From contig JBMFVE010000005.1 in NCBI GenBank assembly GCA_049966155.1, positions 36,330-100,329 of the forward strand: a DNA stretch of 64,000 nt, written 5' to 3'. Below are positions 54,561 to 57,023 of the stretch, piece by piece (position 1 is the first letter of the stretch; each line of letters opens with the position of its first letter). This stretch comes from Candidatus Kryptoniota bacterium (GTDB lineage Bacteria; Bacteroidota; Ignavibacteria; Kryptoniales; JAKASW01). The notes beneath the pieces are model-generated. The model made no database searches. It was not told where the DNA came from and saw nothing but the letters and a program-made list of their open reading frames with translations. Both the position numbers and the translations under genes were made by a program.

Positions 54561-55100
54561 ATGAAGTTAAGAGACGCCCTGGTTTTGTCTACATTCTTGG
54601 TTGTAAACGCCGCTGCAAACGCTCAGGTGATAGATTTTCGTCAACTTGAACTATCTCTTCCTCAGGATAGCGTTATTGATGGCTATAGGCGTACAAAGGC
54701 GGGTGGCGAAACTGCTGCGATGATGGGTTTTTCTACATCCTGGGCTCAAGTTGGTTACAAAGCAGATGCTGAATCATCCTCCTCATATATATCATTCAGG
54801 GTCAGCGATATGATCCATGTGTCCTCATTTTTCATACTAGCAATGACGGGCAATGTCGATAAGGAGACAAAAACAGGCTATGAGAGAACGGTGGACTACA
54901 GGGGTTTAAAAATTCTTGAAGCTTACGATTCCCTTTCCAAATCCGCTAAACTGGAAATGCCTGTGGCGGGTCGTTTCCTTGTTCAAGTTGCCGGCAATAA
55001 TATAAGCAGCATCAAGACGCTGTATCATTTCCTGGAATTGTCAGATATCGCAAGACTGGAAAGGGTTGTGTCAAACTCAGACCAAAATAGAACAAAATGA
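54561..55100 (+). CDS. hypothetical secreted protein
   Basis: SD GGAGGAG, signal peptide ending ANA/Q. Confidence 0.7.
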   Translation: MKLRDALVLSTFLVVNAAANAQVIDFRQLELSLPQDSVIDGYRRTKAGGETAAMMGFSTSWAQVGYKADAESSSSYISFRVSDMIHVSSFFILAMTGNVDKETKTGYERTVDYRGLKILEAYDSLSKSAKLEMPVAGRFLVQVAGNNISSIKTLYHFLELSDIARLERVVSNSDQNRTK

Positions 55101-55112
55101 TGGAGAAAAAAA

Positions 55113-55613
55113 ATGAATAGCTGGTTGACAATGTCTATTGTATTTCACCTTGTTGGCGCTGGAATGATATTTACAGTTCTACTCGCCGGACCGATAGTTG
55201 AAGCAAATTTCAGGTGGGAAAACGACGTCCGAATGAAGCAACATGCCGCAAAACTTTTGCGCAGCATTGGCTTGCTGTCACCTTTCGGTGCATTAATCCT
55301 GGTCTTAAGTGGAATCACAAATATGGTCATTTTAGATATCACATTCGCCTCTCTCTTTGGAGGAAGCGCAACCTGGTTAGGGGTGAAACTCATATTGTTC
55401 GTGATCCTCTTAATTATTGGTATGACAGTCAATCCCAAAATCTCAAGACAACGTGCAGCGGTGCTCGACCAGATGACCCAGATAAACCCGCCTGAATCTG
55501 GAACCGACACTCTGGCTTCTTTAAATGCTCGACAGACAATTTCTTTCTTATTTCAGTGGATTATCGTCGTTCTGATACTGCTTCTGACCATTGTCAGACC
55601 CTGGTCTCATTAA
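55113..55613 (+). CDS. four-TM membrane protein (CopD/DUF2269-like)
   Basis: N-terminal His, SG..M motif, 'LGVKL' in third TM. Confidence 0.6.
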   Translation: MNSWLTMSIVFHLVGAGMIFTVLLAGPIVEANFRWENDVRMKQHAAKLLRSIGLLSPFGALILVLSGITNMVILDITFASLFGGSATWLGVKLILFVILLIIGMTVNPKISRQRAAVLDQMTQINPPESGTDTLASLNARQTISFLFQWIIVVLILLLTIVRPWSH

Positions 55614-55679
55614 GCAAAGATGTTTTAAGGCTTCAGAATCTCTTTCTTGCTTATCCAAAAGAATCTTTTAAGACGCTTC

Positions 55680-55709
55680 TTGCAACTATAAACATTTAAG
55701 TTTTATATT
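55680..55709 (+). promoter_or_regulatory. promoter of the sRNA/tRNA-Glu unit
   Basis: TTGCAA-N18-TATATT. Confidence 0.55.
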
Positions 55710-55714
55710 AGTTA

Positions 55715-55794
55715 GTGAAGAGAATGTTTCTCTTCTTCATGGCACCTCCTTTCTTGGTCTGTCTGTCTGCTGGCGGCGGGTGGACAGACCTTTT
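55715..55794 (+). ncRNA. candidate ~80-nt sRNA with an anti-Shine-Dalgarno linker
   Basis: Hairpin GAAGAGAA/TTCTCTTC, linker CACCTCCTTTCT, 15-bp terminator-like stem, then TTTT. Confidence 0.6.
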
Positions 55795-55798
55795 GTGT

Positions 55799-55874
55799 GT
55801 CCCCATCGTCTAGTGGCCTAGGACATCGCCCTTTCACGGCGGTAACAGGGGTTCAAATCCCCTTGGGGACGCCA
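55799..55874 (+). tRNA. tRNA-Glu(UUC), CCA encoded
   Basis: GTCCCCA/TGGGGAC acceptor stem, CT-TTC-AC anticodon loop, GTTCAAATC T-loop. Confidence 0.97.
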
Positions 55875-55943
55875 CTATTTACCAATCCTTCCAAGATTCA
55901 CCCCATCAGGTTAAATTATGTGTAAAACATAAGGAGATACCTT

Positions 55944-57023
55944 GTGCAACGTTACAATTCCTTCTCAGAATCATATCCGTTTCATCTGTCTGAACACAAC
56001 ACCATTGGATGCAGGAGAATACACTATATCGGAAACCTGCTGGCTATATTTGCTTTTATAATATTCTTTTGCAGTTTGAACGTTCAGTGGGTTTTCCCAG
56101 CCCCTGTGCCAGGTTACAGTAGCAATTGGAAAGGACAAATAATCCAGGAATACGTTGCGTGGAACACTGATTCGACCATTCAGCGGGAAAATTCAATTCC
56201 GAAAGTAGACAACACGAGAATGCACATTAGAGTACAGGACTCAGTCTTTGCAGGAATGACGTTCAGGATACACTTCAGGCACTTACAAGAACCGGAAGTT
56301 TATATTCCCCTGCATAGGATGAGAGCTCGAAAATTTGACCTCCTGATTCATTTTCATGGCGAGTCACGTGCTGTAAAGTATGCTGCAAGAGAATTCAATG
56401 CCTCGATAGTAGCTGTGTCCATAAATCTCGGCGAAATTGCCGCCACTTACGCTGACGCCTTCAGCGACACTTCCCGATTCAGTGATCTCCTCAGGGGAAC
56501 TGTCAATACCATCGAGAAAAAATTAAAGCGCCCTATTCAAATAAGGAGAATTTTTTTAAGTTGTTTCGGTGAAGGATACGCTGCAGTGCGCGAGATTATT
56601 TCGGTCAAATCCAATTTACCAAAGCTGTACGCCGTCATAATGCTCGATGGAATGCGTGCTAAGTATGTCCCAGATCGAAAAGAGCTAGAAGGGGAAGGAA
56701 TAGATTCGACAGAACTTCAACCCATCCTTGAACTGGCAAAGCAGGCTGCCAATCCGAATTTAAACATAAAGTTCCTGGCTACTCATTCTGAAATTTTTCC
56801 CGGGACGTTTGCCGGTGCTACTGAATGCTCGGATTACATTATCGGCCAACTTGGCTTGAAAAGAAACTCAACGATGAAACATGGGCCCCTTGGTATGCAA
56901 CAGTTGAGCAGGGCCCGACGTAACCACTTTGAAATTCTCGGCTTTGCGGGCAACACGCTTCCGGATCATTTTGACCATCTGGAGGCACTATATCACTTTC
57001 TTAGAGCGGTCGTTCGCCTCTGA
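55944..57023 (+). CDS. hypothetical protein: DUF962/Mpo1-like N-terminal remnant fused to an alpha/beta-hydrolase-like domain
   Basis: YPFHLSEH...CRRIHYIG...APVPGY; IHFHG, LSCFGEGYAAVR, LDG. Confidence 0.55.
   Translation: MQRYNSFSESYPFHLSEHNTIGCRRIHYIGNLLAIFAFIIFFCSLNVQWVFPAPVPGYSSNWKGQIIQEYVAWNTDSTIQRENSIPKVDNTRMHIRVQDSVFAGMTFRIHFRHLQEPEVYIPLHRMRARKFDLLIHFHGESRAVKYAAREFNASIVAVSINLGEIAATYADAFSDTSRFSDLLRGTVNTIEKKLKRPIQIRRIFLSCFGEGYAAVREIISVKSNLPKLYAVIMLDGMRAKYVPDRKELEGEGIDSTELQPILELAKQAANPNLNIKFLATHSEIFPGTFAGATECSDYIIGQLGLKRNSTMKHGPLGMQQLSRARRNHFEILGFAGNTLPDHFDHLEALYHFLRAVVRL

Follow-up and report, generated by a model that had tools for sequence, protein, structure and literature searches.

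A strongly conserved 5' leader of tRNA-Glu(UUC) bearing a copy of the 16S rRNA 3' end in a Kryptoniota bacterium: a candidate leader-derived small RNA

Introduction

Small RNAs that display an anti-SD motif are already known, and the closest described kind to the RNA element treated here is the cuckoo or alpha-r14 group of small RNAs of the Alphaproteobacteria (RSs0680/CcsR, C14 and NfeR1). As presented in the passages cited from PMC4615179, these RNAs come from free-standing genes and repeat the motif CCUCCUCCC in the loops of two to four adjacent hairpins, and the unpaired anti-SD-like motif, which is retained across genera whose stems differ, is proposed to occlude ribosome-binding sites. 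The leader of tRNA-Glu(UUC) that we describe here, in a bacterium of a different phylum, carries a single motif, CACCUCCUUUCU, which is identical over 12 nt to the end of 16S rRNA and lies in a linker between two hairpins of a pre-tRNA leader; its hairpin loops read UGU and GGC, and the loop arrangement of the alphaproteobacterial RNAs is thus not found. The leader motif is predicted to be unpaired and is invariant in four lineages, in which the stems hardly vary either.

Spacers of tRNA precursors offer a second comparison, since the 3'ETS-leuZ of E. coli, attributed to Lalaouna et al. 2015, is reportedly such a spacer that acts as a regulatory RNA. RNAs of this type derive from 3' trailers or from spacers inside the precursor and act as sponges of small RNAs, whereas the element described here is a 5' leader, far longer and more structured than usual, whose predicted partners are the SD sites of messengers. 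What it is predicted to share with them is to be a by-product of pre-tRNA processing that pairs in trans and is made in step with the tRNA.

The third relevant system involves the tail of the ribosome itself. The anti-SD tail of 16S rRNA is sequestered in Bacteroidia by bS21, bS18 and bS6, and rpsU is autoregulated through an extended SD (PMC7797042, PMC9976891, PMC13000453), and the portions of these papers used here do not mention a free copy of the tail. The binding of that tail by the three proteins had been mentioned in an earlier note on the present DNA, and it is stated in the passages cited from PMC7797042 and PMC9976891. Here the same RNA sequence occurs in a related large lineage, in a genome with modest SD use and an rpsU gene that has an extended SD-like site. 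Kryptonia are placed in geothermal springs by PMC4737851. A literature search that was not aimed at small RNAs from tRNA 5' leaders found no long conserved 5' leader with a copy of the 16S tail.

In this work, we analysed a window of 64,000 nucleotides, the whole stretch of DNA under study, from contig JBMFVE010000005.1 of a Candidatus Kryptoniota bacterium. Comparison of related sequences indicates that the leader is a real, strongly conserved and uncatalogued RNA element confined to one genus-level clade of uncultured hot-spring bacteria, with an expression and a function that are predicted. We propose, with a probability of roughly 0.35, that the leader yields a small RNA whose seed is an anti-SD; an action purely in cis is nearly as likely.

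Results

Structure of the tRNA-Glu(UUC) leader

All elements of the locus lie on the plus strand. A promoter-like site at 55680–55709 is composed of a -35 box TTGCAA (55680–55685), an 18-nt spacer and a -10 box TATATT (55704–55709), and scores 9/12 in a consensus scan. Sites at this level were found 4 times in 1.5 kb, compared with 2.6 ± 1.8 in shuffled sequences, which makes the score a weak argument alone. Both hexamers are identical in the related metagenome contig L037, where variation affects the spacer as well as the 6 nt that follow the -10 box, and the promoter type TTG-N17-22-TAnAWT is common to the tRNA-Glu loci of the sister genus and to other tRNA genes of this genome. Upstream of the -35 box, where the flanking intergenic DNA has diverged, two further blocks are conserved, GTTTTAAGGCTT at 55622–55633 (one mismatch in L037) and AAGAATCT at 55659–55666 (unchanged); these may belong to the promoter as an upstream element or may be sites for a regulator.

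The 83-nt 5' leader of pre-tRNA-Glu(UUC), the candidate source of a small RNA, is defined by fold and conservation at 55716–55798 and consists of a 5' hairpin, a 19-nt unpaired linker and a 16-bp hairpin, after which come the tail UUUUGUGU and the tRNA. Hairpin 1 stands at the predicted 5' end (55717–55735, arms GAAGAGAA and UUCUCUUC) with a stem of 8 bp or 7 bp and -8.5 kcal/mol, the 8-bp form in RNAfold joining 55717–55724 to 55728–55735. The linker UCAUGGCACCUCCUUUCUU occupies 55737–55755 and contains the 12-mer at 55743–55754. The terminator-like hairpin 2 (55756–55790) has 16 bp with five G-U pairs, a 3-nt loop and a stability of -21.8 kcal/mol when folded alone, and its tail (55791–55798) is made of UUUU at 55791–55794 and GUGU at 55795–55798, which places a U at position -1 of the RNase P site. 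The tRNA-Glu(UUC) gene with encoded CCA, recognised by ARAGORN and Rfam, follows at 55799–55874. A 5' leader of a pre-tRNA is what this arrangement describes, as the promoter-like site and the tRNA share a strand and an RNase P RNA is present in the genome (259 bits), the start site of transcription being predicted.

The earlier note had placed the promoter, both hairpins, the linker, the UUUU and the tRNA at these same positions, and its 15-bp stem with four G-U pairs is extended by RNAfold, which adds a fifth G-U as the closing pair. The G-U pairs exist on the plus strand only, and on the minus strand hairpin 2 is reduced to its 8 outer pairs (-12.9 kcal/mol). On the plus strand, the region 55700–55798 folds at -33.5 kcal/mol with z = -3.59, and none of 200 shuffled sequences was equally stable (RNAfold). 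The unpaired probability of the linker is mostly 0.8–0.99 from 37 to 75 °C, and the two hairpins and the open linker also form when the whole pre-tRNA is folded and at 55, 65 and 75 °C. These results support the claim of an RNA element on the plus strand that is co-transcribed with tRNA-Glu, the transcript itself being predicted. The locus does not look like an rRNA-mimicking leader of a ribosomal-protein operon, as the neighbouring genes encode a weakly CopD-like membrane protein, an Mpo1-like protein and a deoxynucleoside kinase, and rpsU lies on another contig.

The linker repeats the 16S rRNA 3' end

The host genome (2.70 Mb, 35 contigs, 98.9% complete) is without an assembled 16S gene, and the comparison therefore rests on the five 16S genes of the sister genus. 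In 5/5 sister-genus genomes having 16S, the 12-mer equals the 16S rRNA's 3' end, and this bears out for the nearest genomes the claim that the linker matches the anti-SD tail. All five genes read CACCTCCTTTCT followed by AAGGAGCC, preceded by GGATCACC in four and by GGAACACC in one. The identity between leader and 16S is exactly 12 letters long, corresponds to the last 12 nt of the relatives' tail and stops where their precursor trailer begins; it also ends at the same position as the 16S tail of B. subtilis, which was measured to end at GAUCACCUCCUUUCU according to the passage cited from PMC6107228. The 12-mer occurs once in the 2,696,096-base genome when both strands are counted. Because chance predicts about one such occurrence in 5.4 million positions, the argument does not rest on rarity but on location and conservation, and chance does not account for the 12-mer falling within the unpaired region of a non-coding RNA that is strongly conserved.

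As a separate observation, the precursors of these five 16S rRNAs (L031–L035) carry AAGGAG directly after CACCTCCTTTCT. Judging from the letters, CUCCUU-UCU-AAGGAG could fold back on itself over 6 bp, and the resulting hairpin would mask the anti-SD up to the trimming of the 3' end.

Conservation in close relatives

Three other lineages were compared with the window, namely the contigs X1 and X2 from hot-spring metagenome runs and the metagenome contig L037, which is identical to L036 over 3036 bases and was counted with it as one lineage. L036 and L037 were found with a pattern made of the last six leader bases and the start of the tRNA, which also returned one unrelated locus (L038). In the three lineages, 80–83 of the 83 leader positions are kept, compared with 61–84% in flanking genes and 60–75% in other non-coding DNA. 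Against L037, identity amounts to 73.5% in the upstream ORF at 54561–55100 (third codon positions 101/180), 83.0% in the upstream ORF at 55113–55613 (third codon positions 112/167), 60.6% in the intergenic stretch 55614–55679 and 75.0% in the promoter region 55680–55715; it reaches 96.4% (80/83) in the leader at 55716–55798, with 19/19 in the linker at 55737–55755 and an invariant UUUUGUGU tail, and 98.7% in the tRNA, before dropping to 70.7% in the spacer after the tRNA and 60.8% in the downstream ORF. The probability of at most three changes in 83 positions at the flank rate of 21.4% is 4e-6 for this pair.

Of the three leader changes in L036, two (55725 and 55727) fall within the hairpin 1 loop, and the third is 55782 G>A, which turns a U-G pair of hairpin 2 into U-A. 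The 91-kb contig X2 has one change in 55716–55871 (55774 C>T, a loop position of hairpin 2) against 50/271 in the upstream gene, and four listed changes at 55711–55715. X1 has five changes in 55677–55827 against 43/261 upstream; the one listed is 55712, and the other four fall no more than about 33 letters from an end of the piece, so that 55716–55794 is without a listed change and 55795–55798 may carry some of them. Overall, variation in the leader is limited to four sites, three of them in loops and the fourth a change from G-U to A-U, and the linker is invariant in the four lineages. Since 55710–55715 differs among the three lineages, they are distinct from one another. The high identity begins at about 55716, which is the predicted start of transcription, and its left edge falls there in two lineages. 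As a control, pairs of sister-genus loci whose downstream genes are 75–83% identical have leaders that are 51–85% identical.

Judged by these sequence comparisons, strong purifying selection acts on the leader in this clade and equals that on the tRNA. Across the four lineages and four variable sites no compensatory double change was seen, and the stems are kept in sequence and not in pairing alone; hence, the hairpins are consistent with the variation rather than proven by covariation. Conservation of the stems at the level of sequence points to something more than a base-pairing seed.

Distribution beyond the clade

At the 22 tRNA-Glu loci of the sister genus (L002–L023), the tRNA is identical or nearly so, the promoter type is the same and the leader is long. 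A TTG-N17-22-TAAATT-type site was found at 21 of the 22 and gives leaders of 46–91 nt; at L002, where no promoter was recognised, a 100-nt stretch was scored, which sets the full range at 46–100 nt. The linker and second-hairpin sequences of these 22 leaders are unrelated to those of the window. The earlier note had made its reading depend on a conserved linker, and this holds for the genus-level clade, where the linker is invariant in four lineages, and does not hold for the sister genus, where CCTCC is present in 0/22 leaders. Most sister-genus leaders (L003–L023, first 20 nt) start with GAAG-n-GAGCA-n-TTC, a sequence that resembles or is related to hairpin 1.

Searches over wider sets gave a similar picture. 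BLAST matches among 60 relatives were confined to the tRNA part, and a BLAST search of 401 phylum-level genomes, own genome included, returned the full-length leader in the own genome only and chance pieces of 17–40 nt elsewhere. CCTCCTT at 20–50 nt before the start of tRNA-Glu was likewise found only in the own genome among 401 class-level genomes that include it, a pattern search in which many genomes may have another tRNA-Glu 5' sequence. In a collection of species-representative genomes, no stretch had the 12-mer at 25–55 nt before the start of tRNA-Glu, and a pattern of the downstream protein used to seek close relatives in metagenome contigs gave 592 matches, none of which was confirmed. 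A covariance-model search proposed in the earlier note, with Chlorobi-1 among the models, matched the leader to no Rfam family either at the gathering threshold or at E <= 10: with Rfam 15, only the tRNA reached the gathering threshold in the window and Chlorobi-1 and alpha-r14 were unmatched, and at E <= 10 the only match touching the leader within 55600–55960 was mir-4677 (13.4 bits, E = 9.3).

SD use and possible pairing targets

AAGAAAGGAGGUGCCAUGAA, to which the linker is complementary, amounts to an idealised ribosome-binding site, and the duplex of the linker with AGAAAGGAGGUG has a predicted energy of -19.5 kcal/mol at 37 °C and -11.1 kcal/mol at 65 °C. SD use was counted as ORFs of at least 80 codons that start within 4–10 nt after a motif. 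GGAGG is followed by such a start in 454 of 4287 cases (10.6%), compared with 3.1–8.3% for control motifs, and AAAGGAGG in 44 of 197 (22.3%); SD use in this genome is only modest. Complements of 10–12 nt to the linker do precede start codons, and they are ordinary strong SD sites. In a genome-wide search for a specific target, the longest complement elsewhere had 13 nt and stood before a 13-codon ORF, which is about the chance expectation. No complementary ribosome-binding site was found at hemA or at the two glutamyl/glutaminyl-tRNA synthetase genes, gltX included, and Hfq was not found in the 98.9% complete genome.

The longest complements to the linker include the ribosome-binding sites of two ORFs that begin MAAKMIDFG (contig C4 near 207051, minus strand) and MAIVRWKPE (contig C1 near 689659, plus strand), which may encode a GroEL-type chaperonin and a small heat-shock protein. 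The rpsU gene (bS21) has a match at C3 223961–224119 (L055) with a TTG start preceded by the extended SD-like AAAGGAAGGTGAT, which resembles the extended rpsU SD described for Flavobacteriales in the part of PMC9976891 cited here.

Discussion

The reading that we favour, at a probability of about one in three, is that the leader is the source of a small RNA with an anti-SD seed. In this proposal, transcription would begin at about 55716 from the TTGCAA/TATATT promoter and RNA polymerase would mostly pass hairpin 2, because the tRNA depends on such read-through; RNase P would then cleave at 55798/55799 and free an RNA of about 83 nt. Leaders removed by RNase P are usually degraded fast, and the freed leader is proposed to be protected by hairpin 1 at its 5' end and by hairpin 2 with the U-rich tail at its 3' end. 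In the folded model, a cleaved leader would have a hairpin at each end and an open middle of 19 nt, the arrangement of small RNAs that work by base pairing. The single-stranded UCAUGGCACCUCCUUUCUU could pair with extended SD sites of the AGAAAGGAGGUG type, so that the leader RNA would compete with 30S subunits at the minority of messages having strong SDs. Since every tRNA-Glu made entails at least one leader, the amount of leader RNA would rise and fall with stable-RNA synthesis. Several points weigh against this proposal, namely the usual fast decay of such leaders, stems kept in sequence and not in pairing alone, the restriction to one genus-level clade, a longest complement of about chance length, the lack of Hfq and of complementary sites at hemA and gltX in the searches above, and the modest SD use; the listed sequencing runs that contain the stretch include no RNA run.

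How the leader might be released depends on the tRNA genes of this organism. Of the 43 tRNAs that ARAGORN finds in the genome, tRNA-Glu(UUC) and tRNA-Glu(CUC) account for one each. Because the only tRNA-Glu(UUC) gene stands behind hairpin 2 and there is no room for a promoter between the two, all of its transcription passes the hairpin; and because all tRNA-Glu(UUC) synthesis reads through it, hairpin 2 is not an efficient terminator. The earlier suggestion that the RNA is produced by termination thus fails as the main route, given that the only gene for this tRNA needs the read-through. Elsewhere among the 43 tRNA upstream regions, CCTCC occurs in only one other, the spacer between tRNA-Gln(CUG) and tRNA-Glu(CUC), where C1 685967–686010 holds a UCCUCC-AGAGA-GGAGGA hairpin, an anti-SD/SD stem that the sister genus lacks.

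A leader that acts purely in cis is the nearest competitor and must be regarded as a serious possibility. It would control the output of tRNA-Glu(UUC) through partial termination or pausing, through processing by RNase P or RNase E, or through a regulatory protein, and the likeness to 16S would be incidental or a protein site. Hairpin 2 shares with intrinsic terminators and attenuators a GC-containing stem that has U residues behind it on the strand that is transcribed, has the sequence features of an intrinsic terminator, and stands 8 nt before the only tRNA-Glu(UUC). It differs from them in its place between a promoter and that single tRNA, in having only four U, where the rpsU terminator of the same genome has a 7-bp stem and seven T, and in lacking a competing anti-terminator fold, the two-hairpin fold being dominant from 37 to 75 °C. 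Control in cis agrees with the long tRNA-Glu leader being a family-wide trait (46–100 nt at the 22 sister-genus loci) while most other tRNAs have short ones: the -10 box lies 6–26 nt from the tRNA in 20 of the 35 tRNA genes in which such a box is recognisable, and the 89 nt at tRNA-Glu(UUC) is the longest distance among tRNAs that head a unit, except for one doubtful case at 148. The conservation of stem sequence also suits recognition by a protein more than a simple seed. However, the sister genus uses quite different leader sequences, which means that processing alone does not require this one, and a function in cis leaves unexplained why the 12-nt identity to the 16S end falls in the one long unpaired stretch.

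Another possibility, which we consider unlikely, is that the leader imitates the end of the ribosomal RNA for proteins and not for messages, its hairpin and tail mimicking helix 45 and the 3' tail so as to bind bS21, a nuclease of 3'-end maturation or a tail-cutting toxin. The exact agreement of the identity with the measured tail end in B. subtilis and with the start of the relatives' trailer speaks for it, as does the spacing, a hairpin lying 7 nt upstream of the 12-mer in the leader and helix 45 lying 5 nt upstream in 16S. The tail is held by bS21, bS18 and bS6 in Bacteroidia, bS21 is present here with its extended SD-like site before a TTG start, and conservation of the whole leader sequence suits protein binding. 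On the other hand, hairpin 1 does not resemble helix 45 in sequence, tRNA-Glu has no link to these factors, and the tail pocket, in the published descriptions cited above, is built by three proteins on the 30S platform and need not be reproduced by a free RNA. A broader and rather improbable version joins both kinds of target: each round of tRNA-Glu synthesis would leave a free and stable copy of the last 12 nt of the 16S tail, a decoy that titrates strong SD sites or tail-binding factors such as bS21 and thereby sets the level of SD-led translation.

It is quite improbable that the leader has no function of its own, with its likeness to 16S due to chance and its identity among lineages to recent recombination that spread the tRNA together with its leader. 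One occurrence of the 12-mer is about what chance predicts, the tRNA is identical across the family and could anchor such exchange, and only four lineages were available. Yet the edge of identity at the predicted start in two lineages, the promoter with hexamers kept and with varied spacer and 55710–55715, as expected of selection, and leader changes that differ by lineage and all spare the pairing argue against it, as does the divergence of sister-genus leaders at the flank rate.

Masking in cis has very little to recommend it. Here the CCUCC of the leader would pair, in the unprocessed transcript, with the AAGGAG (55931–55936) of the Mpo1-like gene that starts at 55944. No terminator-like site occurs within 600 nt past the tRNA, the order tRNA-Glu then Mpo1-like gene is found at 10 of the 22 sister-genus loci, and the centroid fold of 55716–55975 joins CUCC to the downstream GGAG, but this pairing is absent from the MFE fold of the same stretch and RNase P would part the partners. 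CCUCC is also missing from the sister-genus leaders despite the kept gene order, and the Mpo1-like gene has its own conserved promoter-like TTAAATTA at 55911–55918. In the window, this box and the AAGGAG SD lie within 55911–55946, and the start codon of the gene is GTG here and ATG in L037. Least credible of all is a minus-strand micro-ORF antisense to the leader, MKKRNILFTN*, with the ribosome-binding site AGAAAGGAGGTGCC-ATG, since the near-ideal SD formed by the linker complement, with the ATG 4 nt after GGAGG, is outweighed by an ORF of 10 codons here and 14 with a different end in L036, by minus-strand promoter candidates that lie only inside or beyond the tRNA gene, by five hairpin 2 G-U pairs that turn into mismatches on that strand, and by conservation that spans the whole leader and not the ORF.

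Even read conservatively, as acting in cis, the leader marks a control element under unusual constraint whose tRNA is essential and encoded by a single gene, and tRNA-Glu(UUC) also feeds haem synthesis via the glutamyl-tRNA reductase found in the genome. If it yields a working small RNA, as we tentatively favour, it would rank among the rare tRNA 5' leaders that have their own function, and as an anti-SD regulator it would be supplied in step with stable-RNA synthesis. The host lineage is related to bacteria in which the ribosome hides its anti-SD tail, and a free copy of the tail would bear on how SD recognition is tuned or lost. Should the leader indeed serve as a free tail copy that sets SD-led translation, it would do so in a lineage placed between SD-using bacteria and the SD-blind Bacteroidia.
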